A stretch of DNA of 61,178 bases from Acidimicrobiales bacterium (GCA_038212405.1 JBBQUN010000002.1:1-61178); one strand, 5' to 3'. Counted from the stretch's first letter, positions 1,278 through 25,268 are shown. Notes: generated by a model not told the origin, from the sequence alone. Program-made: numbers and translations.

Positions 1278-1322
1278 GTTCCACCTTCGATCGACGAGTG
1301 CGCCGAGGGTAGTGTGCCACCG

Positions 1323-2920: not shown

Positions 2921-3027
2921 CGGTTCAGTGTGGTTCCCCGGCGATCGGTCTGCACCTTCGTCGAGAGCGCAGCGGTCGAATGACCCACGTCGTTGTGACT
3001 GGGCCGGCGGTGCACCATCATGACGGC

Positions 3028-4731: not shown

Positions 4732-4761
4732 GCCCGGTCACCGTTCCGACGCCATGAGCCG

Positions 4762-5505: not shown

Positions 5506-5509
5506 CGGC

Positions 5510-5794
5510 TCATTCGTTGGAGACCACCGCACCGAGATCGACGAGGTCGGCCATCACCTGTTCCATGTCGCTTCGGACAACATCGAGCGTGACATCAAAG
5601 ATCTCGACCAGTTCCTCCGCCAATTGCTCGACCGACACCGGTCGCTCGAGAGACGACCACACGATCGCCATCGGCGCTCCGAAGTGATTGACCTGGTCTT
5701 GCCCCGGTGGAATGAGAGCGACACCCTCGAGGACACGACGCCACAACACGTCGACCCGTCGTTGATACAACGGCGGTGCGTCTCGCTCAGTCAT
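5510..5794 (-). CDS. PqqD-family RRE protein, copy 2
   Basis: Start at MTERDAPPLYQRRVDVLWRRVLEGVALIPPG..VSVEQLAEELVEIFDVTLDVVRSDMEQVMADLVDLGAVV (PqqD pattern). Its ATG overlaps the stop of the upstream nucleotidyltransferase gene by 8 nt. Confidence 0.7.
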   Translation of the reverse strand: MTERDAPPLYQRRVDVLWRRVLEGVALIPPGQDQVNHFGAPMAIVWSSLERPVSVEQLAEELVEIFDVTLDVVRSDMEQVMADLVDLGAVVSNE

Positions 5795-6959
5795 CGAGCT
5801 GACCCCGTAGCTGCCTGACAGCTCGGCGAAGGTGACCTCGCTCGGTCCAACCTCGACTCTCGAGGTACTCCGGGCTGGGCCTGACGAGGGCATGAAGGTA
5901 CCGAGCCCGAGTCCGGACGCCGGGAATCACTGCCAGGGACGCGAACTGCGGCCAGTAGCCGCGTCCCTGGGTCGTGTAGCTACGAAGGAAGAGGACTTGG
6001 CGCCACGGCACCGACACGTCTGCGAGCCGTCGGATCGGATGATCGTCGGCCAGATCGAACGCCGCGATCGTTTCGACGGCGGCACGCCGGATCACGGCCT
6101 GGGCCTGCCAACGCCCACCCATCTCGATCAGGTCGTCCAGATGTTCGGGCCACCGTTCGACCAACAGCATCAAATCGCGCAACGAACCGAGCCGTGGCGG
6201 ATGGTTGCCGAGCGCCGCATCGAAGCATCCATGGATCAGCAGCCCCGTCGGGGTCAGCGTCGGGAGGGCTGTCCCGCCAATCGAGAAAATGTCAGATCCC
6301 AGGAAGAGTTCCTCGGGATCCATCGTCAGACCAAAGGGGCCCCGAGCGAACGTTCGGTGCACATCGACCTCGAGATCATCGACGCGGATCGTCACGTCTT
6401 TCGCGAACTCGAGATCGAAGCCAGTACGAACCTGGGCCTCTGGGCGAACACCGTCGAGATCGGACAGCAGGACCCGGATCGCTTCGTCGAGGTCATCGGA
6501 TCGGATGAGGATGTCGAGATCGACGAAGATCCGGTGTGATGGCTCCCCATACAGAAAATGGGCGAGTGCCACACCTTTCAGCATTCGGAAAGGAATGCTT
6601 GCCGAACCGAGCGCAGCAGCAACACGAAGGGTGGTCCGCTCCAGACGGAGCGAATGCGAGAGCCAGATGAGCAGCCGGTCGGACAAGCGGTCCATCAGGT
6701 CGTCGTCGAGTTCCCATTCCCCCCGCTCGATCGCGTCGCCGAGCGCGCCAAGGGTGCGGCTCCGTTCACACCGGTCGAGCAATTCGTCGAACTCGGCTGC
6801 GGTGAACTTCGCCGGTGGCTCGGGTACACCGCCTTGCAGTGGCATGGCGGCGATTGCGAGGAGCAGGCGATCGAGATCAGACCGCGCTGCGGGCGATCGT
6901 GTTCCTCGGATGGTCGAGGCGCCCATCCGGTCGATCATACTCGTGTCAATTGGGACCAC
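5787..6959 (-). CDS. Nucleotidyltransferase family protein (NTP_transf_5-like), copy 1
   Basis: 390 aa. Signature FRMLKGVALAHFLYGEPSHRIFVDLDILIRSDDLDEAIRVL (KG..a...Y....R...D.D.L), as in the uncharacterised nucleotidyltransferase family found in lasso clusters. Confidence 0.75.
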   Translation of the reverse strand: MVPIDTSMIDRMGASTIRGTRSPAARSDLDRLLLAIAAMPLQGGVPEPPAKFTAAEFDELLDRCERSRTLGALGDAIERGEWELDDDLMDRLSDRLLIWLSHSLRLERTTLRVAAALGSASIPFRMLKGVALAHFLYGEPSHRIFVDLDILIRSDDLDEAIRVLLSDLDGVRPEAQVRTGFDLEFAKDVTIRVDDLEVDVHRTFARGPFGLTMDPEELFLGSDIFSIGGTALPTLTPTGLLIHGCFDAALGNHPPRLGSLRDLMLLVERWPEHLDDLIEMGGRWQAQAVIRRAAVETIAAFDLADDHPIRRLADVSVPWRQVLFLRSYTTQGRGYWPQFASLAVIPGVRTRARYLHALVRPSPEYLESRGWTERGHLRRAVRQLRGQLDD

Positions 6960-7010
6960 TCCTCAGACTCGCCTCGGACCAGCGAGTCCTGCCACCGACA
7001 TCACAACGGC

Positions 7011-7928
7011 TCAGAAGAGTTCGAGCGATCCGAGGCTGAGCGCCAGGTTGTCCAAGCTGGGCGTGTTCGCATTGGCGAGTGTCCGCCATGTGAGTCTCGG
7101 GCCCAGTGGTGGTGCGGGCACGAATCCGTCTCGGAGGCCGAGACCGGCACCGATGGCCACGTCCGCTCGTGCCTCTCGGAGTAGCGAACCGATCGGCAGC
7201 GACGGAGCAAACACATCGCAGATCGAGAGTTCTCGCACCGAACCCCGAGTGCGCAACCGCACCACGGCTTCATCGGTGAACCGGTAGCCAAGAGGAGAGA
7301 AGCCGTAGCGCCAAGCCAGGTAGTCAGCCGAGATGGGCGTATGCCACCCGCTCGGAGGGTTCCACCTGTCGGCCAGGGCGGCAAGGTCAGGCGAGTCGGT
7401 TCCGATGCCCGACGGTTCGCCCCACTTGCCAGCGGCGACTCTGCTTCGAAGCAGTCGTGGCAGGGCGGTGGCGCTGCGAGGCCGTACGGCGATCGGTGCC
7501 CGCCCGACATCGGTCCAGCCCATCTTCAGATAGCCGGGCCGAGACTGATCGTTCGGCGTGTTGAAAACGCCATCGAAGCCCTCGGCCGTCAAGCTCTCCA
7601 CTGCTGCCCTCGTGAGCTTCGTGAATATGCCCTTGCCCTGATGCGAGGGCAGTGTTGCGGTGTCGACGGCACGAACCATCTGGAGCGTTTGAGCTCCACG
7701 TGCGAGCTGCCAACGCATCATCACCCGCACGCCGACGATGTCATCGTGATCGACAGCGACCCAGATCGGCGAGGGCCCGAAGTGATTGTCGCGATGCTTC
7801 CACCGAAAGAAGTCGACGTTGGGGTCGCCCGGCTTCCAGCCGAGAGCAGCGCCACAGCAAGCGACAACTGCCTCGAACTCGTGGTCTTCGGCTTGTCGGA
7901 TCTCAACGTCGTCGGTCACGACCACCAT
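7011..7928 (-). CDS. GNAT-family N-acetyltransferase
   Basis: 305 aa. The acetyl-CoA binding region reads MVRAVDTATLPSHQGKGIFTKLTRAAVESL (Q/RxxGxG/A motif). It lies on the same strand upstream of nucleotidyltransferase 1. Confidence 0.7.
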   Translation of the reverse strand: MVVVTDDVEIRQAEDHEFEAVVACCGAALGWKPGDPNVDFFRWKHRDNHFGPSPIWVAVDHDDIVGVRVMMRWQLARGAQTLQMVRAVDTATLPSHQGKGIFTKLTRAAVESLTAEGFDGVFNTPNDQSRPGYLKMGWTDVGRAPIAVRPRSATALPRLLRSRVAAGKWGEPSGIGTDSPDLAALADRWNPPSGWHTPISADYLAWRYGFSPLGYRFTDEAVVRLRTRGSVRELSICDVFAPSLPIGSLLREARADVAIGAGLGLRDGFVPAPPLGPRLTWRTLANANTPSLDNLALSLGSLELF

Positions 7929-8064
7929 TCTCGCAGCAGACGAGGCAACCCTGCTCGCGTTGAGGTTCTCGTTCCGGTGCGGTTACGAGCAGAGCAAGCC
8001 ATGCCCTCGGTGCCAGCTCACTCGCTACCGGCGAAGCGAACCTCGAGCTGCATGTAGGGGATTC

Positions 8065-8616
8065 CTAGATCGGGGTACAGACCGCTACGTCGTCGTCGTC
8101 GGTACAGATGACGGTGAATCGGAACTGCGAGCTGGCGTTGCCACTCGACTTCAGCACGGTCGGCACGCTGATCGACACCGTGCCACCGGCGGGGTTGATT
8201 ACGGTATTCGTGGCAATCACCGAGCCGGCGCCGTTCCCCCCGGCCCGCTGGTAAATGCGGAGAATACAGCTGGCGTTCACGAAGCCAGTGGTGACGGTGA
8301 TGGTCGAGACCCCGTCTGCGCAGATACCGGAGGTCGTGACACCGGTAAGCCCATTCAAGTTTGCCATCAGCTTGGTGATCGTTGTGGTTTCGCTTGCGCC
8401 GCTGCCACAACTTCCTCCCTGATTGCTGGGCTCCCATGTCGAGTCGAACGACTGCACGGTGCCACTGCACACAGCGGCGTAGGCCGGACTGGTTCCGAGG
8501 ATTCCGACCCCGGGACCTGCCCATGCTGCAACGCCGACACCGGTTGCAACACCGAGTTTGAGTATCGACCGGCGGTCGGTCTGCTTCGCGTTCGATGACT
8601 CTGTCATTTCGTCCAC
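8065..8616 (-). CDS. Tat-signal secreted protein with six Cys, unknown function
   Basis: The N-terminus has the twin-arginine motif TDRRSILKLGVATGVGVAAWA and a likely AYA cleavage site. The mature part of about 135 aa is Thr/Ser/Gly-rich and beta-like, with 6 Cys. I recognise no family motif. Confidence 0.6.
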   Translation of the reverse strand: MDEMTESSNAKQTDRRSILKLGVATGVGVAAWAGPGVGILGTSPAYAAVCSGTVQSFDSTWEPSNQGGSCGSGASETTTITKLMANLNGLTGVTTSGICADGVSTITVTTGFVNASCILRIYQRAGGNGAGSVIATNTVINPAGGTVSISVPTVLKSSGNASSQFRFTVICTDDDDVAVCTPI

Positions 8617-8706
8617 CCCAGATTCTCCCGCCAGGCACAGCCACCTAGAGTGGCAAAGCTACTGCAGGAACAGTGGGGATGCAACGATCGGCTAGCGTCA
8701 AGCACA

Positions 8707-8994
8707 ATGACTCATGAGTATCGGCGAGTTGCCTCGCCATTTCGAGCGATCGACTCGATGGTCCTCGTCTACAGCCCCTCGCAACAAGAGGTCGTGGTTC
8801 TCTCTGAACTCGCCGCAGCAGTGTGGCAGCTGCTCGAAGTACCGCGAAGCAGCGAGCAGCTTGTCGCAGCAATCGACGGCGGCGGCATCGCCGGCCCCAC
8901 TACGCAGAGCGTCGGGTTGGTGCTCAATACCATCAAGTCCCAAGTCGATGGCGCGTTGAGGAACCTTCGGAAGGTCGGACTTGTCCACCCGTGA
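8707..8994 (+). CDS. PqqD-family RRE protein, copy 3
   Basis: ATG 8707 lies inside ORF 8650..8994. Sequence: MTHEYRRVASPFRAIDSMVLVYSPSQQEVVVLSELAAAVWQLLEVPRSSEQLVAAID...ALRNLRKVGLV. Its 3' end overlaps the next gene by 14 nt. Confidence 0.65.
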   Translation: MTHEYRRVASPFRAIDSMVLVYSPSQQEVVVLSELAAAVWQLLEVPRSSEQLVAAIDGGGIAGPTTQSVGLVLNTIKSQVDGALRNLRKVGLVHP

Positions 8995-10060
8995 ACAGCT
9001 CTTCGCCCTGGCGGCTCGAGCGGCGGTAGGTCATGTTGACCTGCCGATCTCGATCGATGACGCTGCGATACCGGCAATCGTCGCGCTGGCAGGAAACGAG
9101 CGGTTGCTGCCGCTCGCCGCTCACGGGTTGCAGCACCTTCCCGACGAGTGGAAGCCCGACGGCTGGGACGAGCTCGTGTTTGCAACAGCTCGTGATGCGG
9201 TCCTCATCGAGGCGAGCATGCTCGAAGCGCACGGCCTCTTGAGCGCCGACGGCATTCGGGTCATGGCGATCAAAGGCATCGCCACTGCGCATCTCGACTA
9301 CGACGACCCTGGTCTGCGCCAGGTCGGCGACGGCGATATCCTCGTCCCGTACCAGCAGCATCTCGATGCCATCGACATCTTGAGCGGTGCCGGATGGATT
9401 GCGCCATCGGCAACGCTGCCGAGTCACCGCGACGCAGTGCACGCCGTTCCGATGCGAGGCCCACTCGGCCGAGACGTCGACGTTCACCAGCATCTCGCGC
9501 CACGAGCGCTCGGTGTGCTTCTGGATCAAGCCGATTTTTTCGCCCACGCAACGACCTTCGAGTTGGGCGACACCCGACTCGGGGCGCCATCGGTGGCCCA
9601 TCGCCTCCTCCACGCCGCCGTGCATTACGAGGCATCGCCGGGTCGTTACAAGCGACTCTCCGGGCTGGTCGATGTCCTCTTGATAGCCCACCGTCACGCG
9701 GTCAACTCAAGCGAACTATGTGCGACCGCCGACGAGTTGGGATTGAGGTTCCTCCTCGAGCGTGCTCTGCGGCGAGCGTCGGCACTCAGCGGGCTCGCCC
9801 TGCCCGCCGAATGGGTCGACGCATTTGCTCGTCCGTGCGCAAAGCCGGATCGGCTCCTCGTCGCCGCTTACAACGGCGAGACACGGCGACCGGTACTTGA
9901 AGAACTGGCGTACATACGACTCGCCGGCGGTCCGGTCGACAAGGTCCGTTACCTCTCGGGCTACTTTCGAACCGATGCCGCCTACCGGGAACGATTCCAG
10001 CGAGGCGGGCTGTGGTCACAAGCTCGCTACCTGGCTTCTCGTGTGCGATCACGGTCTTGA
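8981..10060 (+). CDS. Nucleotidyltransferase family protein (NTP_transf_5-like), copy 2
   Basis: 359 aa with a TTG start. Signature VMAIKGIATAHLDYDDPGLRQVGDGDILVPYQQHLDAIDIL. Confidence 0.75.
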   Translation: MSTREQLFALAARAAVGHVDLPISIDDAAIPAIVALAGNERLLPLAAHGLQHLPDEWKPDGWDELVFATARDAVLIEASMLEAHGLLSADGIRVMAIKGIATAHLDYDDPGLRQVGDGDILVPYQQHLDAIDILSGAGWIAPSATLPSHRDAVHAVPMRGPLGRDVDVHQHLAPRALGVLLDQADFFAHATTFELGDTRLGAPSVAHRLLHAAVHYEASPGRYKRLSGLVDVLLIAHRHAVNSSELCATADELGLRFLLERALRRASALSGLALPAEWVDAFARPCAKPDRLLVAAYNGETRRPVLEELAYIRLAGGPVDKVRYLSGYFRTDAAYRERFQRGGLWSQARYLASRVRSRS

Positions 10061-10717
10061 ACCCGAGTTCGGGCGGAGCGCACCGTAGAGGTCCGGACCG
10101 AACTCGACCAGCGGTTCGAGCAGTGTCGCTGCGTCGATGCGGTGCTGGTGATCGCCATTGCTGATGCGCCTGGCGATGAGCCATATCCGTTGAGCCAGCG
10201 ATGCCGGGGCAGACAAAGGCACACCGGTGAGCAGCACGATCCTCGTCAACTCCAGATCGAGTCGGTGGAGTCTCATGTTCGGGTCGATGTCGAGCACGGT
10301 CGTCGGAAGCAACGCTGCACCCAACGAGGCCAGTCGACGCTCCGACGCCACGAAGTCCGATCCCACGGGCTCGAACCCCACGGCTCGATCACGCCACCGA
10401 ACCGAGCGCATCGCCAGCCTCGCATCAGGAGGTTGCGGCGGATCGGCGAGAACGTGCTCGACCAGCGATGCGAGCGTCATCCCGGCAGCAACGGCGTCTC
10501 GTTCCCTGGCTACCACGCGCCCGCGCCAGTCGAGGATCAAGAGCATCGCTGAGCGGCCGGATCCCGATCGCTGTACCGCGAAGGCGGTGAAGGCATCGTC
10601 ATCGATTCGTGGCGTCGCCTGCCCCTCGAGCCATATGGGTGCAGCCGTGTCGAACACTGCCGGATCCTCCGACACGACCTTGAGCGAGCCATTGGCGAGC
10701 TCGATTCGTTGCTGCAT
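10049..10717 (-). CDS. Hypothetical protein (last gene of the HprK2-PqqD4 operon)
   Basis: 222-aa ORF with good third-position bias and no recognisable motif. It starts 27 nt downstream of PqqD copy 4. Its 3' end overlaps converging nucleotidyltransferase 2 by 12 nt. Confidence 0.45.
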   Translation of the reverse strand: MQQRIELANGSLKVVSEDPAVFDTAAPIWLEGQATPRIDDDAFTAFAVQRSGSGRSAMLLILDWRGRVVARERDAVAAGMTLASLVEHVLADPPQPPDARLAMRSVRWRDRAVGFEPVGSDFVASERRLASLGAALLPTTVLDIDPNMRLHRLDLELTRIVLLTGVPLSAPASLAQRIWLIARRISNGDHQHRIDAATLLEPLVEFGPDLYGALRPNSGSRP

Positions 10718-10744
10718 GGACCCGACCGGGCCCTTCGCCAGCAG

Positions 10745-11095
10745 TCAAGGACTCGGCGGGTCGAAGAACGTCGGGTTGTCGGGCCACGCCCCTTCGATCG
10801 TTTCAGCGTCGGCGAGCAGACCTTCGAGACGGAGGAGTTGCTCCACACGAAGAACCTCGCCGATCGCCACATCTCTCATCACTCCTACCTCGGCGACGAC
10901 ATCGTTGACGAGGTCGCCCATTTGTCCTTCGCCGTCGAAGCAACGGGCGAGGATGGATGCGACAGGATCGAGAAGGACGGGCGCCGGTCGATTCGACGCC
11001 CACGCGATCGACTCGGTGTCGAACGCGCGCACCAGCACGTCCGTTGCCAACGTTGGAACAGCTCGATCCTCGAAGTTCGGTTTTCGGCGGTTCAT
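10745..11095 (-). CDS. PqqD-family RRE protein, copy 4
   Basis: 116 aa. Sequence ..VLLDPVASILARCFDGEGQMGDLVNDVAEVGVMRDVAIGEVLRVEQLLRLEGLL.. fits the PqqD pattern. It has an ATGA start/stop overlap with the upstream kinase gene (11092-11095). Confidence 0.6.
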   Translation of the reverse strand: MNRRKPNFEDRAVPTLATDVLVRAFDTESIAWASNRPAPVLLDPVASILARCFDGEGQMGDLVNDVVAEVGVMRDVAIGEVLRVEQLLRLEGLLADAETIEGAWPDNPTFFDPPSP

Positions 11096-12261
11096 CCTGT
11101 GCGCAATCCCTTCTGCTCGAGTTCGACGAGGAGTCGCTCTGTCCGTTCATCGGCCCCGCCGTCGCAGAACCTGACCCAATCACGTGTATGTTCCGCGTCG
11201 AGCGCAACGAACTGCATCGACGAGTCGATGAGGAGACTCGCCCCATCGATCTCGAGCATCGAGACACCCGCAGTTCGGCCGGTGGTCGAGGCCGCTCGCC
11301 ATTGGAGGGCTCCCGGGCGTCTCGGGCCAGACAGGTGGATCTCGAGCGCTTTCTCCACCGATTCGAGTGCACCTGAGCGAAGACGGATTGCGGTAGCCGC
11401 AGCCAAGAGACGACCGAGTGACAGCACACCGCCGAGGCCGGCGCGCTCAGCGTCCATCACGTGGTCCCGCATCACCTCGACCAACGCATCGATTGGGTGC
11501 GCGATCGACAGCTCCAAAGAATCAACACTGCCGGGCCCCGGTTGGAGTAGCACGATCAGCCCAACCGGGTGGTCATCGGCGCTGACGCGTCCCAGTGCAG
11601 AAGCTCGAACGAGTCGGCCCGCCCCGTGCTGTCGGATGGGAAGACCGTGATCGGCAAGTGTCGGCAGCAGATCGAGGGTGCCGGAGCGAAGGGCGACGGG
11701 TTTCGGGTAGGTCGAGATCTGCGGACTGTCCGAATCGATCGCCACCATCTCGTCCGACAGATAGCACCAGCCGGACTGGAGAAGGTGAGCGGACAGCGTC
11801 GACTTTCCCGTGCGCCGCTTGCCGAGCACCAGAGCGGCGGCGCCGCCACGAGCAAGCGCGGCGGCGTGAAGATGCATTCGCCCCTCATCAGATGCCAAGG
11901 AAAGGCGATTCACCTCTCGCGCAACAGCCCAGAGCGCGTCGGCAATCGAATCGACTTGACGCCAACACCCGTCGAACAAATCGACCATGACGGCCGAGTC
12001 GGCGACGTCGATCGTGGCCGTCGCCAACGGTTGCCGACTCATTGTGTCGGGGTGGCTCACGAGGTCACCGAATACGGCGATCGCCACCTCGACCACCGCT
12101 TGGTCGTTCGACGCAATCTCGAAGACGAACGCGGTCGACGCAAATGCCGGTGTGCGGCTCGGCCGGCTGTCAGGGGGCCTCATGGACCCAGCAATCGCTC
12201 GCAATAGTGTGCGACCATCGATGTCCCTGGCCGGTAGGTCCGAGCCCGGTCGCACGCACAA
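11092..12261 (-). CDS. HPr-kinase-like putative peptide kinase, copy 2 (long form)
   Basis: 389 aa. Motif pattern: LHAAALARGGAAALVLGKRRTGKSTLSAHLLQSGWCYLSDEMVAID (P-loop plus acidic pair). Confidence 0.75.
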   Translation of the reverse strand: MCVRPGSDLPARDIDGRTLLRAIAGSMRPPDSRPSRTPAFASTAFVFEIASNDQAVVEVAIAVFGDLVSHPDTMSRQPLATATIDVADSAVMVDLFDGCWRQVDSIADALWAVAREVNRLSLASDEGRMHLHAAALARGGAAALVLGKRRTGKSTLSAHLLQSGWCYLSDEMVAIDSDSPQISTYPKPVALRSGTLDLLPTLADHGLPIRQHGAGRLVRASALGRVSADDHPVGLIVLLQPGPGSVDSLELSIAHPIDALVEVMRDHVMDAERAGLGGVLSLGRLLAAATAIRLRSGALESVEKALEIHLSGPRRPGALQWRAASTTGRTAGVSMLEIDGASLLIDSSMQFVALDAEHTRDWVRFCDGGADERTERLLVELEQKGLRTG

Positions 12262-12268
12262 TCACCCG

Positions 12269-12871
12269 TCACAGCCGTCGACGAGACGCCATGAGTCCAC
12301 CGTACGTCCCAACCTCGGGGTACTCCATACCCGTATCCATACCCGTATCCCCTCTGGCGTCGAAGCGAAGACCCTCACCGCAGGCGTCGACCTTGCTGCG
12401 CTCGGATCGCGAGGCCGGCCCGCCTTCGGTCAAATCGATCACGTCGGGGAGGTGAACCATGGTCGAGCGGGTTCCTGCGCGATGAGTCGGCACCGTTGAT
12501 ATCCAGCCACTGCGGCCGGCGGGTCGGAGGGAGACCGACCCGATAGCCAGATCGAACACCAACAATGGCAGGAGTCGACGGGGAAACTGGAGCGGCACAC
12601 CACGTGTCGGTGTTCGTCCGAGCCACCCGATTCGATGGTCGCCGAGGGCGGGTTGCGTGGCAGCAATGCGGTGATAGCGGCCGATAGCCCTCAGGATGAT
12701 CACGATCGGCACAAGTAGCCAACCGGCGACGATGAGGCCGGCGGCGGCCACGGCAGCGTCGAAGACCGTCCAGAACGGCTTCGGTCGAGAGGGTGGAGTC
12801 TCCGCATGGGCGCGCAGCGTTATGACGACGCGGTCAGATACCTTTTGGGCTTGGTCTGGGCTCGGTTGCAC
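12269..12871 (-). CDS. Hypothetical membrane-anchored protein
   Basis: 200 aa with one clear hydrophobic helix (AAVAAAGLIVAGWLLVPIVIIL). It lies 7 nt upstream of kinase copy 2. It contains an in-frame 12-bp perfect tandem duplication (12326-12349, encoding DTGMDTGM). Confidence 0.45.
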   Translation of the reverse strand: MQPSPDQAQKVSDRVVITLRAHAETPPSRPKPFWTVFDAAVAAAGLIVAGWLLVPIVIILRAIGRYHRIAATQPALGDHRIGWLGRTPTRGVPLQFPRRLLPLLVFDLAIGSVSLRPAGRSGWISTVPTHRAGTRSTMVHLPDVIDLTEGGPASRSERSKVDACGEGLRFDARGDTGMDTGMEYPEVGTYGGLMASRRRL

Positions 12872-13063
12872 AACGCCTCTCCTCCGTTCCGCAAGCTAGC
12901 AAAGCCTCCCAGATATCGTGCGGATCGCATCGTGGTGGCACGGGCCTGCACGAGTGTTTCATTCAGCGACAACGACCAGAGGGCTCACAAGACAAACGAG
13001 CCCGCTCACGATCTGTCAGCGTCGACGCAATGTCTGGGATTTGGAGAATGAAGCACTCAACGC

Positions 13064-13092
13064 TTGATTGCGACCACGGAGCGTAGTACGGT
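13064..13092 (+). promoter_or_regulatory. Candidate sigma-70-type promoter for precursor A2
   Basis: TTGATT (13064-13069), a 17-nt spacer, then TACGGT (13087-13092, fits TANNNT). It sits about 30 nt upstream of the GGAGGG RBS and ATG 13124, in a comparatively A/T-rich intergenic region. Confidence 0.3.
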
Positions 13093-13123
13093 GCGTCAAA
13101 CCCAGAGCGGGAAGTTGGAGGGT

Positions 13124-13279
13124 ATGTCTATGAACTACGAATCACCATCAATCCGTGAGCTCGGCCGAATCGCCGAACTCACGCTTGGCCAAAACGGAAC
13201 ATCACTCGACGGCAATCGGTCGTACACGCAAACGGGTGGCGGCAACAATGAGGACGATCCGACGGACGACACGCCCTGA
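13124..13279 (+). CDS. Lasso-peptide precursor A2 (51 aa)
   Basis: ATG 13124 sits 3 nt after GGAGGG; the track shows a longer TTG-started 71-aa version. Translation: MSMNYESPSIRELGRIAELTL / GQNGTSLDGNRSYTQTGGGNNEDDPTDDTP. The leader fits YxxPxIxxxGxxxxxTx with the same spacing as A1. Core Gly1..Asp8 allows an 8-residue macrolactam. Confidence 0.8.
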   Translation: MSMNYESPSIRELGRIAELTLGQNGTSLDGNRSYTQTGGGNNEDDPTDDTP

Positions 13280-13287
13280 TCGCCGTC

Positions 13288-14982
13288 TCATGTGGCTCTG
13301 AGCCAACGATCGATCGAGACTAGCGAAGATGCCGGGATCACTGATCCCGGCATCTTCGCTTTTGCCGCATCGACGAGTCGATCCACCGCCTCGCCATCGA
13401 CCTCAGCAAGCTCGCGTACCGGGCCGTGTCGCGCCAACTCCAGCGTCCCCCCGGGCAGAGAAGCCCACGCCGTCGCCGAAAACTCGGCCTTCGTGGTGCG
13501 ATTACGGACGTTCTCGGGCAGCCGAGGACCAAAGGCAACGCGTTGGAGTGAGCGATCGGCGCCACACCTCCTCGGCCAGCCGGGAGGGAGACCGTAGGTC
13601 GCTTCGATGAGATCGATATCGAAGAAGGGGTGCGTGAGTCTGATGTCGAGGGGATCGGTGACGACGGCGAGGTCCTCCAATAGCCGAGTGATCCACCCAT
13701 CTCGAAGCATCTCGGACCGCCGGTCGATCGCGGGGTCACTCGTGTCACGGACCGCCGGACCGATCACCCGGCGCTCGATGCCGAGGTCTCGGCGGTACGC
13801 CGGCTCGAGCAGCGACAAGCCGAACGACGCGCTTCGTCGGCGCCACGCCAGCTCGGCGACCACCGGTCGTACCAGCAGGGGCCAGGTGGCTCGAGGGTGA
13901 GCGGTGATCCACCGGCCAAGCCGAGCGAGTTCCGCACGGTCGCCGGTACGAAGGGCGGAGAGAACTCGAGGGCCGACGAGTTGTGCGCCGAACGCATCGT
14001 CACCCCCCAAACCCGTGACCACCGTGGTGGCGCCCTGTTCTCGAAAACCGGAATGCAGCGATCGAGCCATCAAGCCGTTCGGTGGTGGAGGCGGTACTCG
14101 CCACTCAGCTACGAAAACATCGAGCCACGCCGGGCCGGCGAGAAACGGCGGAGCGTCGAGCAGCGGAAGGCCAAGGTGTCGGGCGACGGCATCGGAGTAC
14201 TTCCGCTCGTCCGCACGTTCGTCGTCGAAGACGATCCGGCCCAGGATCATGGCATCGGTCATCGAACTCGCGGTTGCCGCGACACTCGACGAGTCGAGTC
14301 CGCCGCTCACCTCGAATGCGGTCGTCTCGCCGATCGCCAGCCGCATGCGCACGGCGTCGTCGAGCAGGGAGCGGACTTCCTCGATGGCCTTCTCCCAGGA
14401 GATCGATCGTCGCTGGATCCGGGGTCGACGGGTTGCGCGGACCGATGGGATCGCGCTGCTGGGGACGGTGAGGGCGGTGCCCGGCAAGAGCCGCGTCACA
14501 CCGAGGTGGACGGTTCGGTCCTCGTGGCCGAGCGGGCCGGCCAGCATCTCGGCGATCGTGTGATGATCGGGACGTCGATCCACCCACGAGTTGGCGAGGA
14601 TGTCTCGTTGGAGGGGACTGGCGACCATTCGACCGCTGCCGGCAGCGAAGAAGCAGGGGCGAGCGCCGATCGGGTCTCGGGCAATCGTGATCGTCTCGGC
14701 GCGCCGGTCGGCGACGATCAGAACGAAGTCGCCCTTGATCGACTCGAGCCACGCACGTCGCCCGCAGACGCTCGACACCCAGGTGGCGTCGTCCGACGCA
14801 GCACCCGTCCGATGGATCGAACCGTCGACCAGAACCCATCGCTCGTCGTCCGCCGCAACATGAATCCATTTCGATGTCGAACGCCACGCAATGGTGGCCC
14901 AGCCGAGATCGATCGTTTCGTCGAGCCCGTCGGGAATGCGGTGCGTCCGGTCAGGTCCGACCTGGACGTACCAATCGCTCAT
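13288..14982 (-). CDS. Lasso-peptide cyclase (asparagine synthetase B-like, lasso C)
   Basis: Start MSDWYVQVGPD at 14982, an ATGA overlap with the B2 stop. The PP-loop motif is FEVSGGLDSSSVAA. The N-terminal glutaminase-like domain lacks the N-terminal Cys, as in lasso cyclases. This is the only such gene in the window. Confidence 0.85.
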   Translation of the reverse strand: MSDWYVQVGPDRTHRIPDGLDETIDLGWATIAWRSTSKWIHVAADDERWVLVDGSIHRTGAASDDATWVSSVCGRRAWLESIKGDFVLIVADRRAETITIARDPIGARPCFFAAGSGRMVASPLQRDILANSWVDRRPDHHTIAEMLAGPLGHEDRTVHLGVTRLLPGTALTVPSSAIPSVRATRRPRIQRRSISWEKAIEEVRSLLDDAVRMRLAIGETTAFEVSGGLDSSSVAATASSMTDAMILGRIVFDDERADERKYSDAVARHLGLPLLDAPPFLAGPAWLDVFVAEWRVPPPPPNGLMARSLHSGFREQGATTVVTGLGGDDAFGAQLVGPRVLSALRTGDRAELARLGRWITAHPRATWPLLVRPVVAELAWRRRSASFGLSLLEPAYRRDLGIERRVIGPAVRDTSDPAIDRRSEMLRDGWITRLLEDLAVVTDPLDIRLTHPFFDIDLIEATYGLPPGWPRRCGADRSLQRVAFGPRLPENVRNRTTKAEFSATAWASLPGGTLELARHGPVRELAEVDGEAVDRLVDAAKAKMPGSVIPASSLVSIDRWLRAT

Positions 14983-15440
14983 CGCAGATCCGATGGCAAC
15001 GTACCCAGGTCGGCGCCCGTCGCAATCACCGTGTAGCTGCCAACTGCTTCCGGATCGTCGTTGACCACGGTCGTACCGATCTGGACCCATGCGTGGGCTT
15101 CGACGCTGCCGGAAGTGTTTCGAACTCCGATGACCAGCTCGGCAGCGCTGCCGTGGCGTTCCAATTCGCGCAGTAGCGTCACGGAACGTCGCAGACAGGT
15201 CGGGTGCAGCGGCAGCAACGCGAACGCGCCGTCAATCCGCTCGGCCAGCTCGACGCCCTTGGCGGTCGTGCCGGGCGGCAGGGTCTCGTCGAGCTTCTCG
15301 AGGATCGGGCGCAGGCCTCCGCGCCGTAGCTCGAGCGACGTGCGGCCGGCCCTCCACGCCAACCGGAGCGTCTGCCGGTCGACGAAGGCTGCTGCGATCA
15401 GCGCCCGGAGAGTGGCAGGCAGCCCTGCCTCAGCTCCCAA
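14979..15440 (-). CDS. Lasso-peptide B2 leader peptidase (transglutaminase-like), copy 2
   Basis: 153 aa. Signature PTCLRRSVTLLRELERHG...GSVEAHAWVQIGTTVVND (Cys/His). Confidence 0.85.
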   Translation of the reverse strand: MGAEAGLPATLRALIAAAFVDRQTLRLAWRAGRTSLELRRGGLRPILEKLDETLPPGTTAKGVELAERIDGAFALLPLHPTCLRRSVTLLRELERHGSAAELVIGVRNTSGSVEAHAWVQIGTTVVNDDPEAVGSYTVIATGADLGTLPSDLR

Positions 15441-15690
15441 TCGCGAGTCCTCTCGCCAGTAACTCGGCGACGAGTTTGTCGAAGTCGGCGGCGAGGCGTT
15501 CCGGGTCGACGTCGGGAAAGCGCCCGGTGATGGTCGCGAGCGCTGTTTGACGATCGACGTGGGTCGTTCCGACTTCCCACATGAAGGCCGCAGTCGAGTT
15601 CAGTTCGAGATACATCTCGTTGTTGGAATCGAGTACGACCATCTCGTTGTTCACTCGCCGGGCAAAAACGCCTCTCGGTGCCGAAATCAT
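15430..15690 (-). CDS. PqqD-family RRE protein, copy 5 (lasso B1 of the C/B2 operon)
   Basis: Sequence: MISAPRGVFARRVNNEMVVLDSNNEMYLELNSTAAFMWEVGTTHVDRQTALATITGRFPDVDPERLAADFDKLVAELLARGLAI. ATG 15690 lies 8 nt after GGAGGGA; the maximal ORF reaches 15729. It overlaps the B2 start by 11 nt. Confidence 0.75.
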   Translation of the reverse strand: MISAPRGVFARRVNNEMVVLDSNNEMYLELNSTAAFMWEVGTTHVDRQTALATITGRFPDVDPERLAADFDKLVAELLARGLAIGS

Positions 15691-15768: not shown

Positions 15769-17556
15769 GTGACCGAGCACCAGACGACCAGTGTGTTCGA
15801 TGCGCTTCGGATGGCCTTGGGTTTCGTCTGGCGGAGCGCTCGCTGGACGCTGGTCATGCTCGCGCTTGCCCAGGTGCTCGCGGCGCTGGCGCTCCTCATG
15901 TTGCTGCTGTCGGTTCGATCGCTGATCGCCGGGCTCGAGGCCGGTGACCAACTGAGTTCGGTCACCTCGTCGGTCGTCGTCTCGTCGCTTGCGTTCCTCG
16001 TGATCGGTGTGGTGGGTGTCGGCTCACAGTCGCTGCAGCTCCTCATGGCGGAGAAGACGAACCGCATCGTGCAGCATGACATCATGCAGATCGCCGTTGG
16101 CGTGCCCTACTCGAGCTACGAAGATCCGGGCTTCCACGATCTGCTCGAGCGGACGACGCAGCGGACGGGAAACAGCTCCCTCCGACTGGTCGGCGGTGTG
16201 CTGACCATCCTCGAGTCGGTCGCCGGGATGTGTGCCGTTGCCATCGCGCTGGCGCGTACCGTGCCGGCGCTGCTTCCGATTCTGCTCGTGGTTGCGCTGC
16301 CGCTGCTCGTCGCTTCCCGAGTCGGCGCACGCATCAACTACCAGATGGCGCTCGAAGTGACCACCGACGATCGGCTGCGTCGATCGATGTTGCTTGCGCT
16401 CACGAGCAAACAGACGGCGCGGGAGGCCCGGACGCTCGGGTTGGGGGCATCACTCGGCACGCGGTGGGATCGGCTCTGGGATCAGCGCATCGCCCTCGTG
16501 CGATCGTTCGCGCTGCGCCGCATGTTCGTCTTGGCCGCGGCCGCCACGCTGTCGGCCTTGATGACCGGCGGCGTGCTCTTCGTGCTGGTGCGAGCAACGG
16601 CGAACGGGACGATCGGTCTCGCCGACGCCTCGGTGGCGGTGTTGGCGTTCCAGCAACTGCTGCAGCGCACCCGCTCCACCGCTCAGGCGACAGGGAACTT
16701 GCGGGAGTCCGCCCTCTTCCTCAGCGACTTCGAATCCCTCGACCAGTACCGGCGGCCCGCTCTTGACGACGGTCTGGCGCTCCCGACGCCCGAGGTGGTG
16801 TCGTTCGAGGATGTCTCGTTTCGATATCCGGGTGGACGGGGCGATGTGTTGGTCGGGACGAGCTTCGAGCTGCGCAGAGGCGAGATGACGGCGCTGGTGG
16901 GTGCCAGTGGGGCTGGCAAGTCGACCCTCGTCCACCTCTTGGCCGGCCTGTATCAGCCGATGACGGGACGGATCCTGTGGGACGGCGCCGACCTTGCCGG
17001 TGTGGACGATCGTGATCGTTGGCGGTCCACCGCGGTGACGTTCCAGGATTTCGGTCGCTTCGACCTCACCGCCAAGGAGAACGTCGAATTGGGAGACGCC
17101 GCTCGCAACGATGCCGAGGCGCTCCGGCACTCGATGGCGGTCGCCGGGATCAGCGACGTGGTCGAGCGTCTCCCCAGCGGCTTGGACACGTTCCTGAGCC
17201 GACTCTTTCCCGGGGGAACCGAGCTCTCTGTGGGGCAGTGGCAACGGCTGGCCGTGGCGCGAGCGCTGTATCGGCGCGCCGCGCTGTTGATCCTCGACGA
17301 GCCCTCGGCGGCCCTGGATGCCGAGTCCGAGGTCGAGTTGATCGATGCGTTGCGGGCCGAGTGCGACGAGCGAGTCGTGCTCGTCGTCTCTCATCGATTC
17401 AGCACGGTGCGTCGAGCAGACCGCATTCTGGTGCTCGACGCTGGTCGCATCGTGGAAGACGGCAGCCACGATGACTTGATGGGCCTCGACGGTCGCTACG
17501 CCCGACTGTTCCGACTCCAGATGGCCGAACCGCCGGCTGCAGTCGACCCTGGCTGA
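15769..17556 (+). CDS. ABC transporter, fused permease/ATPase (lasso-type exporter), copy 2
   Basis: GTG 15769 is in frame with ORF 15547..17556. TM domain, then Walker A GASGAGKST, signature LSVGQWQRLAVARAL and Walker B LLILDEPSA. Confidence 0.85.
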   Translation: MTEHQTTSVFDALRMALGFVWRSARWTLVMLALAQVLAALALLMLLLSVRSLIAGLEAGDQLSSVTSSVVVSSLAFLVIGVVGVGSQSLQLLMAEKTNRIVQHDIMQIAVGVPYSSYEDPGFHDLLERTTQRTGNSSLRLVGGVLTILESVAGMCAVAIALARTVPALLPILLVVALPLLVASRVGARINYQMALEVTTDDRLRRSMLLALTSKQTAREARTLGLGASLGTRWDRLWDQRIALVRSFALRRMFVLAAAATLSALMTGGVLFVLVRATANGTIGLADASVAVLAFQQLLQRTRSTAQATGNLRESALFLSDFESLDQYRRPALDDGLALPTPEVVSFEDVSFRYPGGRGDVLVGTSFELRRGEMTALVGASGAGKSTLVHLLAGLYQPMTGRILWDGADLAGVDDRDRWRSTAVTFQDFGRFDLTAKENVELGDAARNDAEALRHSMAVAGISDVVERLPSGLDTFLSRLFPGGTELSVGQWQRLAVARALYRRAALLILDEPSAALDAESEVELIDALRAECDERVVLVVSHRFSTVRRADRILVLDAGRIVEDGSHDDLMGLDGRYARLFRLQMAEPPAAVDPG

Positions 17557-18416
17557 CGCCGGAACACCCGGTCGAGCCCTGCCCTGACATCGCTCGGCGG
17601 CAGGAAGGCCAGGACGGCCACGATCATGATCGGCGTGAAGATGCCGACTCGGAGAAAGATCGCAAAGACGAGATGGAGCGCCACCGAGGTGGCGACGCCT
17701 ACACGTGGTCGAGTCACGAGCAGGATCGGCAGCACCAACTCGGTGAGCAGCACCAGGTAGGTCAGGGCGGTGGTGCCGAGGACGGTCTCACTGAGCAACG
17801 AGGGCATCGGCACCGACGCGACGCTCGGGTTGTGCAGCGCGGCATACACCGCTTCGCCCTGTCGCCACGTCGATCCTTGGAGCTTCCAGATCACGCTCGT
17901 GCAATAGACCACGATGACCTGGAGCCGGACCGATGCGACGAACAGCCGTGGTCGCTCGCGACCGGGAGCGGAGAGATTCCCGGTCAGGGTGGAGTGTGAA
18001 CCCAGGAACAGGGCAACGACGGCCCACATCAGGATCAGGCGGAGGAGCTGGTCGCCGGCGTTGATCGCGGCGGGCTGGAGTCGTTGGATCGACGTCACAC
18101 CGATGAACGCGATGACCACGCCGATCCGCGATGCTCGCCCGAGGGTCAGCGAGACACCGACGGCGGCGATGCCGAGGAGCACCAGAGTCACCCACCAGGC
18201 TGGGGAGCCGGCGAAGAACAGGGTCCAACTGAATCGACGGCCGGCTTCGGTGGGGAAGATCGACGAGTCGGAAAGGAGGGAGCGGGCGTCGAGGAGCCAC
18301 GAGAGTGACCACCAGCAGATCAACGCACCGAGGAGCGTTCTGACGAGCACCTCGGTATCTGGCTGCTCGGCGGCGAAGAATCGGCGGTGGAGCTGGCCGA
18401 GGATCGTGGTCGTCAC
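17496..18416 (-). CDS. HTTM-domain (vitamin-K-dependent gamma-carboxylase-like / SdpB-like) membrane protein
   Basis: 306 aa, polytopic. Pattern: LVRTLLGALICWWSLSWLLDARSLLSDSSIFP ... RLQVIVVYCTSVIWKLQGSTWRQGEAVYAAL ... LTELVLPILLV...ALHLVFAIFLRVGIFTPIMI, as in HTTM/SdpB-family proteins. Confidence 0.65.
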   Translation of the reverse strand: MTTTILGQLHRRFFAAEQPDTEVLVRTLLGALICWWSLSWLLDARSLLSDSSIFPTEAGRRFSWTLFFAGSPAWWVTLVLLGIAAVGVSLTLGRASRIGVVIAFIGVTSIQRLQPAAINAGDQLLRLILMWAVVALFLGSHSTLTGNLSAPGRERPRLFVASVRLQVIVVYCTSVIWKLQGSTWRQGEAVYAALHNPSVASVPMPSLLSETVLGTTALTYLVLLTELVLPILLVTRPRVGVATSVALHLVFAIFLRVGIFTPIMIVAVLAFLPPSDVRAGLDRVFRRQPGSTAAGGSAIWSRNSRA

Positions 18417-18991
18417 CCGTCGAACCCTCCCGCCGCCGGTTCCGCCTGCGAGTCGGTGGCCAGGATGCCCTCGTCGAGAGAGAAGATCGGTGTCGTGATT
18501 TCTGTCGGCTCACCATCGTTGCCTCGGCCAGGATCGAGGTTGGTGACTCGCACCAGGACGACGTCGACGACGTCCATGCCACGGTCCTCGGCATCGCTTG
18601 CCAGGTTCTCGGCCAACGGTTGCCAGAGCTCGTAGTTCTCGTTCGACACCATCTCCTTCGAGACCTTCTCCCAACGTCGGTCTCTCAAGAGCTGCCACTG
18701 CGGCGGAACGAGCGGTTCGTAGATCTCGATGGTGCCGTCGCTCGCGTGGAGCTCGACACGGAGATGTGGTGCGGTGGTTCCGGGGTTGGGAGCGAACATC
18801 GCCCAGCCCTGCACGCCGGCGGTCAGGTCGTAGAGCGGAGCCAGTCGGGCTTGTGCGGGGCGACCTACCCGCGGGTGAGGAAACGCGGCGAGGAGAGCTC
18901 CGACGACGAACGCCGCGTACACCAGTACCCGAAGACGGTCAGTCCTGGGCAACGAGTTGCTCCAGCAGACGACGGGCCGACTCCAATCCAT
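18413..18991 (-). CDS. Membrane-anchored protein, possibly SdpA/DUF5819-like partner of the HTTM protein
   Basis: It has an ATGA overlap with the HTTM gene start, one N-terminal TM helix (VLVYAAFVVGALLAAF) and the motif VQGWAMFAPNP. Start ATG 18991 is uncertain; GTG 18922 would avoid overlapping the upstream kinase gene. The family assignment is from memory and position only. Confidence 0.4.
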   Translation of the reverse strand: MDWSRPVVCWSNSLPRTDRLRVLVYAAFVVGALLAAFPHPRVGRPAQARLAPLYDLTAGVQGWAMFAPNPGTTAPHLRVELHASDGTIEIYEPLVPPQWQLLRDRRWEKVSKEMVSNENYELWQPLAENLASDAEDRGMDVVDVVLVRVTNLDPGRGNDGEPTEITTPIFSLDEGILATDSQAEPAAGGFDG

Positions 18992-19802
18992 CACGGCCCC
19001 GCCCGACGCAGAGTCGAACAGGGATTGTTTGCTCGACAACGGCACCGAGATGATCGAAGACGGCCGGTAGGGAGCCGCCCGCGTCGAGATCGGCATGAAA
19101 GGTGGCTCCGAAGAGCAACGCGTGGGCCCGGCCCCGACCGAGTTCGATCAGGCGAGACACCGAGGTGTCGTTCGGCTCGACGAAGACCAGTGCACCCAGC
19201 TCGATCGGTGCGTCGAGGAGGTCGAAGGTTCCGAGCCTGAGCCGGGACTTTCCGGCAATCGGCGTCGTGTCGGCAGCGCCCAGCAGCGCGACGCTTTGGT
19301 CGGTCAGTCGAATCGATGGGTAGGTGGCGTCGGCAAGCGGTGGTTTGTCGGCACTGATGACGATGCCATCGTCACCGCCGACCTGCCAGCCGCAGTAGGC
19401 GAGATGCGACACCAGAGTGGACTTTCCCGAGCCGGAGGGTCCGATCAGGGCAAAACCCTTCCCCGCCTTGGCTGCCAAGGCTGCGTGCACCACGAGGTGG
19501 TTGGTCCAGGCAAGCCAGAGCGGGAGGATGTGGTCGAGGACGATGTGCTCGAGCGACTGCTCGTCGAGCGTTCGGTTGAAGCGGACCTGGTTCCCGATGA
19601 CTTCGGCGCAGCCTGCCTCCATGAAGTCGACCACGAGGCGATCGCCGTCGGTCCAGTGGCGGCGCCACAGCGTTCCATCGAGGCGGCGGGACTCCACACC
19701 AGGCGGGTCCGGCACGACGATCGGACCGGGTGCGAGTACCTCGAGCTGACGCTCGCTGCGCACCTGGGTCCAGATGTCGGTGAAATTGCTGGATGTCGGC
19801 AT
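18939..19802 (-). CDS. HPr-kinase-like putative peptide kinase, copy 3
   Basis: 287 aa. Motif pattern: VVHAALAAKAGKGFALIGPSGSGKSTLVSHLAYCGWQVGGDDGIVI. Confidence 0.75.
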   Translation of the reverse strand: MPTSSNFTDIWTQVRSERQLEVLAPGPIVVPDPPGVESRRLDGTLWRRHWTDGDRLVVDFMEAGCAEVIGNQVRFNRTLDEQSLEHIVLDHILPLWLAWTNHLVVHAALAAKAGKGFALIGPSGSGKSTLVSHLAYCGWQVGGDDGIVISADKPPLADATYPSIRLTDQSVALLGAADTTPIAGKSRLRLGTFDLLDAPIELGALVFVEPNDTSVSRLIELGRGRAHALLFGATFHADLDAGGSLPAVFDHLGAVVEQTIPVRLCVGRGRDGLESARRLLEQLVAQD

Positions 19803-19889: not shown

Positions 19890-20891
19890 TCAGCTGACGA
19901 TGAGCCTGCGAGATTGGTAGGCGAGATAGCGGAGTCGGTTTCGGGTGCTCGTCTGATTGGCGAGAACCGCGATGGTCTCGCGGGCGACGCTCCGACTCGT
20001 CCGCAGGTAGGCGCGGTTGATGGCGGACTTGGAGATTCGTGGCGGCGGTGGAGGCTCGGGGTTTCCGATGGCCACCGCCAGCCACCGAGCCACCGAGACC
20101 AGGTCGATGATGCCGAACAGGCGCGCCAGATCGTCGACGCGATCTTCGTCGAGGTCTTGGCGTGTTTGGATGAGGGCGACGTCGACCAGCGACGAAAGCC
20201 GTCGGTGCTCGGGCGGTGACAAGAAGAGGTGCCCGGCTGCGTGGACGAGCCGGCCTGCAGGGTCGAGCGCATGGCCCAACTCGTTCGGTAGCGGCATCAA
20301 CTGACCGTACAGCTCCTTCGAGCCGTGAGGCCCGAAGCGGAACAGGCGATGGTGCACATCGAGTTCGATGCCGCTCGGCGTTCGAAAGGTCTGCTCGACG
20401 AGGAGGTCGGTCGGTTCACCCGCCTTCAAGGGTTCGTAGTGTTGGCCGAGTGTCTGGCACGCCCGAGCGAAATCGCCGTCAGGCACGAGGAGGTCGACAT
20501 CACCAGTGTGGCGAACCGCGCCGGCGGGGTAGTCGAGGTGTGACGTGGCGAGACCCTTGAGGATCACTGCGTCGACGCCGATTTCCGCGAGTTGGTTGAC
20601 GGTTCGGCGGGCAGCCGAGGTGAGGTGGAGAGCGAGGACGGTGACGTTGTGGGCTTCGTCGGCGGTGTCACCGAGAGCGGTCAACAGCGATCGGATCCTG
20701 TGCCGTTCGGCAAAGGCGAGCAGAGGCGGTGTGAGCTGGAGGTCGAGCGTGGTCGCACCCGCCAGGTGATCGATGCAGGCGCGCACCAACTCTGCGCCGC
20801 CAACCGGGGCGGCCTCGTCGACGAGTCGGATTGGGTCGGTACGTATCTGCGGCGAAAGATGCACACTGCCAGGTCTTGTCGAGGAGGTCAT
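19890..20891 (-). CDS. Nucleotidyltransferase family protein (NTP_transf_5-like), copy 3
   Basis: 333 aa. Signature AVILKGLATSHLDYPAGAVRHTGDVDLLVPDGDFARACQTL. Its ATG overlaps the stop codon of the upstream sugar phosphotransferase gene (ATGA at 20888-20891). Confidence 0.75.
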   Translation of the reverse strand: MTSSTRPGSVHLSPQIRTDPIRLVDEAAPVGGAELVRACIDHLAGATTLDLQLTPPLLAFAERHRIRSLLTALGDTADEAHNVTVLALHLTSAARRTVNQLAEIGVDAVILKGLATSHLDYPAGAVRHTGDVDLLVPDGDFARACQTLGQHYEPLKAGEPTDLLVEQTFRTPSGIELDVHHRLFRFGPHGSKELYGQLMPLPNELGHALDPAGRLVHAAGHLFLSPPEHRRLSSLVDVALIQTRQDLDEDRVDDLARLFGIIDLVSVARWLAVAIGNPEPPPPPRISKSAINRAYLRTSRSVARETIAVLANQTSTRNRLRYLAYQSRRLIVS

Positions 20892-21526: not shown

Positions 21527-21531
21527 CGGGG

Positions 21532-23484: not shown

Positions 23485-23808
23485 TTGGCTCTCCTGGTAT
23501 TCGGTTGCTCCTGAGCCGATCGGCCCACGACCGACGCACTTGAGTACTCCGCCAACTTCCTGTGATCATCGAAGTGCCGAGAGTGAGGTCGTGCCCGACG
23601 ACCGACGCTCGATCCCCGAAAAGGGAAGACTCTGCGTTTGGTTGGCTATCGTTCTGCTCGCGGGTTTGTAGTCGAACAGGACCTTGGTCAAGGAGGCGTT
23701 GCGCGGCGGCTCAATTCTGCGGTCGTGGTGTCGATAGGCAATAGGTCGACCGATTCATCCGCAGCAGCGGCGCTCCACCGCTTACTCTCACCCTCAGCTC
23801 AGGACGAC

Positions 23809-25265: not shown

Positions 25266-25268
25266 ACG

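Follow-up and report, generated by a model that had tools for sequence, protein, structure and literature searches.

The bsf cluster of Bradymonas sediminis (BsfA/B1/B2/C/D/K/N) combines a lasso precursor with a Gly1-Asp8 core with a nucleotidyltransferase gene, N. As described in PMC10368454, its HPr-kinase-like enzyme BsfK phosphorylates the ring Ser3 of the linear precursor in a B1-dependent manner, and the BsfK residues H148, G163, K169, S170, D186 and D187 matter for catalysis. Paeninodin-type kinases phosphorylate, and require, the C-terminal Ser of the linear precursor, and in pseudomycoidin a nucleotidyltransferase adds a hexose to the phosphate (PMC8498205).

We analyzed a stretch of 61,178 nucleotides from an Acidimicrobiales bacterium (GCA_038212405.1 JBBQUN010000002.1:1-61178), hereafter the window, in which a small gene, A2, very probably encodes the cognate precursor of the adjacent split-B lasso system. 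The features of the locus are listed in Table 1. The databases searched hold no characterized representative of the A2 family and no specific name for it, and literature searches on ScmC, on HTTM proteins with lasso peptides, on lasso peptides of Acidimicrobiia and on opposite-strand precursors returned nothing specific.

Table 1. Features of the A2 locus, in coordinates of the window.
Feature	Position	Strand	Evidence or remark
Candidate A2 promoter, TTGATT (13064-13069), 17-nt spacer, TACGGT (13087-13092)	13064..13092	+	predicted
Ribosome-binding site GGAGG	13117..13121	+	8 nt ahead of ATG 13130
A2 leader MNYESPSIRELGRIAELTL	13130..13186	+	Tyr-17, Pro-14, Ile-12, Gly-8, Thr-2; NF033521
A2 core GQNGTSLDGNRSYTQTGGGNNEDDPTDDTP and TGA stop	13187..13279	+	predicted Gly1-Asp8 isopeptide ring, 22-residue tail
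Lasso cyclase C, 564 aa	13288..14982	-	Pfam Asn_synthase 3.6e-24; SGGLDS at residue 262 of 600-aa ORF
Terminator-like hairpin, arms 13323-13339/13343-13359, loop ACT, then TTTT	13323..13363	+	17 bp, in the 3' coding end of C
Leader peptidase B2, transglutaminase-like (start codon uncertain)	14979..15440	-	Transglut_core3 1.2e-21; NF033537 68.9 bits against a cut-off of 33
B1, PqqD-type RRE, 86 aa from ATG 15690	15430..15690	-	Pfam PqqD 1.4e-11; GGAGGG upstream
ABC exporter (D), divergent from B1	15811..17556	+	ABC_tran 7.3e-28; L001 orthologue 61%, same position
HTTM/SdpB-like membrane protein	17496..18416	-	HTTM 6.1e-8; TIGR04033 below cut-off; 59% in L001
Membrane-anchored protein, 192 aa from ATG 18991	18413..18991	-	66% identical in L001
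HPr-kinase-like (ScmC-like) putative lasso kinase K	18939..19802	-	partial matches to TIGR04352, TIGR04355 and TIGR04249
NTP_transf_5 nucleotidyltransferase-like N	19890..20891	-	PF14907 1.4e-20; orthologue in L001

The A2 frame is open from 13064 and contains two in-frame ATG codons, at 13124 and 13130, ahead of the TGA at 13277-13279. The ORF and the peptide are found in the sequence as a preliminary description of this DNA had quoted them. The start codon given there, ATG 13124, is replaced here by ATG 13130 because GGAGG lies only 2 nt before the former, and because the public gene call for the contig (P0001) and all orthologues begin with M-x-Y. The A2 gene thus most likely comprises 13130-13279 and encodes 49 residues, divided into a 19-residue leader and a 30-residue core; the alternative start would add Met-Ser to the leader. 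The distance of 8 nt between the A2 stop and the stop of the minus-strand cyclase ORF, which ends at 13288, proved exact (13280-13287).

The leader, the core and the gene neighborhood all place A2 among lasso precursors. First, the leader carries the Tyr-17/Pro-14/Leu-12 signature of the class, with Ile in place of Leu, and scores 23.9 bits with the NCBIfam model NF033521 (lasso_leader_L3), above its cut-off of 19. The Thr at -2 that is usual for lasso leaders is present in A2 and in all 120 relatives analyzed, whereas the Ile or Val seen at this position in Bsf-type leaders is not. Second, the core starts with Gly and has Asp at position 8, as in lasso cores that start with Gly, Ala, Ser or Cys and have Asp or Glu at positions 7-9. 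Third, A2 is accompanied by genes for an Asn-synthase-like cyclase, a transglutaminase-like peptidase and a PqqD-type RRE, a pairing also seen in eight related loci. Across 200 first-order Markov simulations of the window, the leader motif followed by G/S/A/C at position 1 and D/E at 7-9 had an expectation of 0.005 per window; it was observed twice, in A2 and in a second precursor-like ORF, A1, at the start of the contig. When the A2 family profile was searched against PDB sequences, the precursor of the siamycin-type peptide MS-271 was the best match (E 0.02), and TbiA leaders came next.

A peptide search identified one close relative, P0002, which is 82% identical to A2 and lies on the metagenomic contig L001. 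The two cores share 26 of 30 residues (87% identity); between the same two loci, the identities are 42% for the cyclase, 48% for B2, 58% for B1 and 61% for the ABC exporter. The A2 genes differ at 41 nucleotides, 28 of them at third codon positions, and dN/dS amounts to 0.065 for the gene as a whole and 0.061 for its core, at a saturated dS of about 2.4. Core dN (0.093) is lower than leader dN (0.262), making the core the more constrained part. A six-frame check over four orthologues (window, L001, L012 and L016) revealed that the sense frame is the only one open in all four and that its protein identity, 0.74, exceeds that of every other frame (0.62 at most). Purifying selection acts on A2 at the protein level.

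These data also bear on the idea that A2 is untranslated, its frame being a product of chance and its conservation that of an antisense RNA, of the cyclase operon's 3' UTR or of some other regulatory element. The scanner found no minus-strand terminator past the C stop within 12500-14000, so that transcripts running past the end of the cyclase operon would be antisense to A2, and one antisense frame that shares the wobble positions of A2 retains 62% identity. This frame, however, is interrupted by internal stops in three of the four orthologues, whereas the sense frame has none; the dN/dS ratio, the match of the leader to a curated model and the 148 homologous peptides called as genes likewise argue for translation. 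We consider an untranslated A2 extremely improbable, and both the chance-ORF and the RNA-only readings were set aside on the grounds of selection, frame openness and the NF033521 match. The antisense ORF at 13135-13272 was rejected as a conserved element owing to its stops in the orthologues.

The translated A2 gene belongs to a recurrent genomic arrangement. The nearest relatives of the cyclase are 35-42% identical and were traced to their contigs; a single-sequence scan of genome contigs with the cyclase alone found no relatives, and DNA scans with the precursor alignment added MAGs labelled Acidimicrobiia and Frankiales. An A2-type precursor converges on the 3' end of C in L001, L002/3, L004, L006, L007, L008, L009 and L012, with 0-37 nt between the two stops. 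Absence of the ORF from related loci, named in the preliminary description as a finding that would count against A2, was thus checked in the eight loci with enough context, and all eight carry the ORF in the same convergent position. The earlier proposal of a separate A2 transcription unit running toward the cyclase is supported. The gene order in L001 is precursor, convergent C-B2-B1, divergent ABC exporter, HTTM gene, unknown gene, kinase-like gene and NTP_transf_5 gene; the genes from HTTM through NTP_transf_5 lie beside A2 there at 33-66% identity, and the remaining neighborhood differs.

Several further observations concern the surroundings of these loci. L002 contains a second, unrelated lasso cluster, in which a candidate precursor (1918-2115, plus strand; core VIVVGTADDGVIKSSDVGVIKQ) converges on its own C (2295-4229, minus strand). 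In L012, three small ORFs of 108, 49 and 82 residues are found on the minus strand at 1409-2607, between B2 and the kinase. They contain one to three leader-like units of the form Y.AP.I....(D/E)L.G.L, most of them followed by SD(A).IKH.V.PV, and a neighboring ORF gives a borderline match to Peptidase_S74 (endosialidase chaperone; 21.9 bits against a cut-off of 22). Surface-glycan genes lie beside the lasso loci of the window (20888-36115), L001 (1-9615), L002 (14345-15202) and L004 (16174-20361), four loci with cyclases no more than 42% identical. These genes encode PglC/PglF/PglE/PglD-like proteins, GT4 glycosyltransferases, a heparinase II/III-like protein, a flippase and an ADH+GFO fusion.

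At the A2 locus, a perfect 17-bp hairpin begins forty-four nt past the A2 stop, within the final ~25 cyclase codons. The MFE z-score of the hairpin region is -5.8 relative to shuffled sequences, and the hairpin is more stable than all of the control windows taken from the C gene (149/149); the same holds in six of eight related loci. The inner stem encodes the conserved residues PGSVIP and the outer stem encodes variable residues. Comparison of the window, L001 and L012 revealed that 7 of the 17 pairs change on both sides and that pairing is maintained in 94% of cells, compared with 29-45% in slid registers. The outer stem still pairs across orthologues where the encoded amino acids differ. 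An Rfam search with the hairpin returned no family, only sub-threshold noise. We read the hairpin as a putative terminator and 3' stabilizer of a short A2 mRNA.

At the other end of this putative transcript, the promoter put forward in the preliminary description, TTGATT-17-TACGGT, is present in the sequence. The L001 and L012 orthologues have TTGTAT-18-TAAGCT and GTGACA-17-TACTGT, respectively, at the same distance from the start codon, and an upstream alignment of four orthologues lends the A2 promoter weak support. A consensus promoter/terminator scanner run over 12500-14000, with thresholds that exclude both TTGATT/TACGGT and a run of four T, makes no call, and for this reason the promoter stays a candidate. 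A precursor terminator embedded in the coding sequence of the cyclase would be a neat regulatory layout.

A profile search extended the A2 family to 148 peptides, nearly all of them unnamed; one record is annotated as 'lasso RiPP family leader peptide-containing protein'. The core statistics given here refer to 120 parsed cores out of these 148 relatives. All 120 cores share G1, G4, S/T5 and D8, 119 of them also have G9, and none has Asp or Glu at position 7 or 9. The original description of A2 as a lasso precursor with a Gly1-Asp8 ring and a long acidic tail is supported. The family consensus is G-x-(N/G)-G-S-C-P-D-G-G-G-R-N-N-T-Q-L-G-G-(G/M)...C-G. Exactly two Cys occur in 113 of the 120 cores, Cys6 occurs in 111, and the consensus points to a ring-to-tail disulfide in the main family.

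A2 falls into a subclade of five members (P0001, P0002, P0019, P0034 and P0071), all of which are Cys-free. It has neither the ring Cys nor the tail Cys that define class III and, having no Cys at all, would be assigned to class II. Members of the subclade carry Ser or Thr at position 6 and an aromatic residue, Tyr or Phe, at position 13; the main family shows Asn or some other non-aromatic residue at the latter site. Only this Cys-free acidic subclade and the related P0112 have an aromatic residue next to the conserved TQ motif, at position 13 of A2. The subclade tail follows the pattern N(N/D)(E/T)DDPTD(D/I)(T/N)P and carries a net side-chain charge of -4 to -6. The simplest reading is that the lasso lock of the subclade changed during evolution from a disulfide to a steric one (class II), and that a polyanionic tail was gained. 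Two relatives, P0112 and P0123, have intermediate cores, one with both Cys in the tail and Trp13, the other with Cys7/Cys28 and Arg13; these cores suggest that disulfide patterns may have shifted stepwise within the family. The family, with at least 148 members from uncultured Actinomycetota, is so far undescribed, and its Cys-containing majority set against the Cys-free subclade with its aromatic residue and acidic tail offers a natural experiment on how the lasso fold is locked.

Core length varies from 21 to 59 residues across the family, and what follows the GG(G/M) block differs widely in both length and composition. Such variability could mean that the acidic C terminus is removed as a follower or pro-region serving solubility, export or self-protection, with the product ending near GGG19. 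Very long tails are also unusual among characterized lasso peptides. Within the A2 subclade, however, DDPTD is identical in five of five members and the tail is as conserved as the ring, which argues that the tail functions in the mature peptide or is a recognition site, and neither the window nor L001 shows an obvious dedicated protease. Removal of the tail therefore seems distinctly unlikely. With the full core retained, the predicted A2 product has 30 residues and a mass of 3064.25 Da when cyclized (core minus H2O), or 3144.22 Da if monophosphorylated.

The enzymes that would act on A2 are encoded on the opposite strand. B1, B2 and C are translationally coupled, and C starts at 14982 with an ATGA overlap at the B2 stop. 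The B1 ORF is open to 15729, and its orthologue in L001 has 86 residues. C matches the NCBIfam lasso/macrolactam cyclase models below their curated cut-offs. Among the accessory genes compared between the window and L001, the one at 18413-18991 encodes the most conserved product; Pfam and NCBIfam gave no match for this protein or for the products of 12269-12871 and 10049-10717.

In the proposed pathway, a short monocistronic A2 mRNA would extend from its own promoter to the hairpin inside the convergent cyclase 3' end, which would act as terminator. B1 would bind the 19-residue leader through Tyr-17, Pro-14 and Ile-12, following the precedents of TbiB1 and BsfB1, and B2 would cleave after Thr-2/Leu-1. 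The cyclase would adenylate Asp8 and join it to the amine of Gly1, forming an 8-residue ring threaded by a 22-residue tail, and the ABC protein would export the product. Because A2 is devoid of Cys while most of its relatives have two, the thread is probably held by bulky residues, for which Arg11 and Tyr13 are the candidates. The core is 30 residues long, Gly-rich and poor in bulky residues, and threading might be lost.

The kinase-like gene raises the possibility of a further modification. The kinases of all family loci preserve the motif H-x14-G-x2-G-x-GK(S/T)-x15-DD, which reads H-x14-G-x2-G-x-GKS-x15-DD in the window, and the kinase gene lies directly upstream of B2 in L002 and L004-L007. 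The locus thus has an HPr-kinase homologue with an intact motif, as paeninodin-type clusters do, but not the corresponding substrate residue. The last residue of A2 is Pro, and a C-terminal Ser occurs in just 4 of 120 family cores, so the paeninodin mechanism does not apply, and phosphorylation of a C-terminal Ser of A2 was rejected. The H/G/G/G/K/S/D/D residues of Bsf-type kinases are present together with a conserved ring Ser/Thr, which occupies position 5, not 3. Over the 120 cores, Ser/Thr5 is the only invariant hydroxyl residue.

Phosphorylation of Thr5 in the A2 ring is therefore our best guess, plausible but weak. The HPr-kinase-like enzyme would probably act on a hydroxyl of the linear precursor, with Ser/Thr5 as the best candidate, and the NTP_transf_5 protein may extend the phosphate; taken together, these two steps are put forward tentatively. 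A Ser at D-minus-3 is also found in MS-271/siamycin cores, and we know of no kinase in the MS-271/siamycin clusters. The invariance of S/T5 may thus be structural and not the mark of a phosphorylation site. The pairing of enzyme and substrate is also ambiguous, because HPr-kinase-like genes also occur at 374-985 and 11092-12261 of the window, along with two additional NTP_transf_5 genes.

A simpler product is conceivable to a similar extent: A2 may be a plain class II lasso peptide that is only cyclized and exported, with the kinase-like, NTP_transf_5 and HTTM genes serving A1, a glycan pathway or immunity. Consistent with this, A2 does not have the C-terminal Ser used by paeninodin-type kinases, and the accessory genes sit in a separate operon that runs into Pgl-like glycan genes. 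On the minus strand from 23484 to 17496, this string encodes a PglF-like dehydratase, Bac_transf, NTP_transf_5, the kinase-like protein, the 192-residue protein and HTTM. Yet every locus of the precursor family also encodes a kinase whose motif is intact, in several cases next to B2, and the HTTM, unknown, kinase and NTP_transf_5 genes stay with A2 in L001 though the other neighbors differ. As a separate observation, the NTP_transf_5 gene at 19890-20891 overlaps the upstream Bac_transf gene by 4 nt, hinting that the two may be in one operon. An active-looking HPr-kinase homologue that is always present in a family without the C-terminal Ser would, if it modifies the ring, extend the ring-phosphorylation theme to another phylum.

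The window contains the second precursor-like gene, A1, at 149-319 on the plus strand (core SGSANQMENDMSNPPRVGPTFNMA), which passes the lasso-leader model with 20.4 bits against a cut-off of 19. The region 3' of A1, at 374-12261, encodes a kinase-like protein, a PqqD protein, a PRMT-like methyltransferase, an ABC exporter, two NTP_transf_5 proteins, a GNAT protein and a third kinase-like protein; no cyclase or B2 is present in the A1 gene set within the window. A PRMT-like methyltransferase is a conserved neighbor of the A2-family cyclase in L004-L007.

The preliminary description had noted the same leader spacing in A1 and A2 and had suggested one recognition system for two products. Tyr-17, Pro-14, Leu/Ile-12, Gly-8 and Thr-2 are indeed common to both leaders, and both pass NF033521, but the likeness does not go beyond the class-wide motif. 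YxxPxLxxxGxxxxxTx is common to most split-B lasso leaders, and the same profile matches the TbiA and MS-271 leaders. That a single B1/B2/C set (13288-15690) matures both A1 and A2 into unrelated products would agree with the one cyclase and one B2 gene visible in the window. Against it, A1 has its own RRE, HPr-kinase-like gene and ABC exporter, with NTP_transf_5 nearby, and the two PqqD/RRE genes of the window, at 15430-15690 by A2 and about 990-1280 by A1, are 34% identical. L001 has the full A2 set and no A1-like ORF within 18.5 kb, and the adjacent second lasso cluster in L002 has its own C and B2. Only 148 nt separate A1 from the end of the contig, and a C and B2 belonging to A1 may be out of view. 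A shared system is accordingly not supported and appears unlikely, although A1 may yet draw on the C and B2 visible in the window, and we retain A2 as the cognate precursor of the adjacent genes.

A more elaborate scheme can be drawn up around this assignment. The ring Ser/Thr5 would be phosphorylated by the HPr-kinase-like enzyme and the phosphate extended by NTP_transf_5 with a sugar supplied by the Pgl-like (bacillosamine-type) genes that repeatedly flank these loci; an ancestral ring-to-tail disulfide would have been replaced in the A2 subclade by an Arg11/Tyr13 steric lock and the polyanionic tail; and the nested terminator would couple precursor and cyclase expression via convergent, partly antisense transcription. 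As a single package, this scheme is speculative, and we assign it a low probability. Identification of A2 as the precursor would fix the true substrate of this lasso cluster and give an exact prediction of its product. The findings do not overturn the current understanding of lasso biosynthesis.

Among the systems compared, the bsf cluster shares with the A2 locus the Gly1-Asp8 core, the YxxPxL leader, the split B1/B2, a K with the H...GxxGxGKS...DD motif, the nucleotidyltransferase N and a precursor without a C-terminal Ser (PMC10368454). The two systems differ in the residue at -2 (Ile in Bsf leaders, Thr in A2) and in the modified or candidate site, which is Ser3 in Bsf and position 5, the only invariant hydroxyl, in the A2 family. 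They also differ in taxonomy, with bsf in Deltaproteobacteria and the A2 family in Actinomycetota MAGs, and their cores show no sequence relationship. Neither an HTTM gene nor a precursor converging on the cyclase, both seen at the A2 locus, figures among the features of the bsf genes named in the excerpted text of PMC10368454. As at A2, an HPr-kinase homologue occurs in the lasso clusters of paeninodin and pseudomycoidin, the latter also with a nucleotidyltransferase (PMC8498205); the kinases of these clusters need a C-terminal Ser, whereas A2 ends in ...DDTP. TbiA leaders, known from the TbiA/TbiB1 structures (PDB 5V1V and 5V1U), align with the A2 family leader over YxxPxLxxxG, and the B1 protein here is a PqqD-type RRE; the TbiA cores are unrelated to the A2 core. 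The class I peptides MS-271/siamycin have G-S-C-x-D before the acceptor Asp and a Cys pair linking ring and tail, similar to the GxxGSCPDG...C of the main A2 family. The class III peptide BI-32169 bears the same likeness in its ring motif and ring-tail Cys. Both MS-271/siamycin and BI-32169 have 9-residue rings and hydrophobic cores, in contrast to the predicted 8-residue ring and long acidic tail of A2, and neither is known to be accompanied by a kinase. Pandonodin is proteobacterial, unrelated to A2 in sequence and without a polyanionic tail, but its exceptionally long tail indicates that ~18 residues or more are compatible with lasso maturation.
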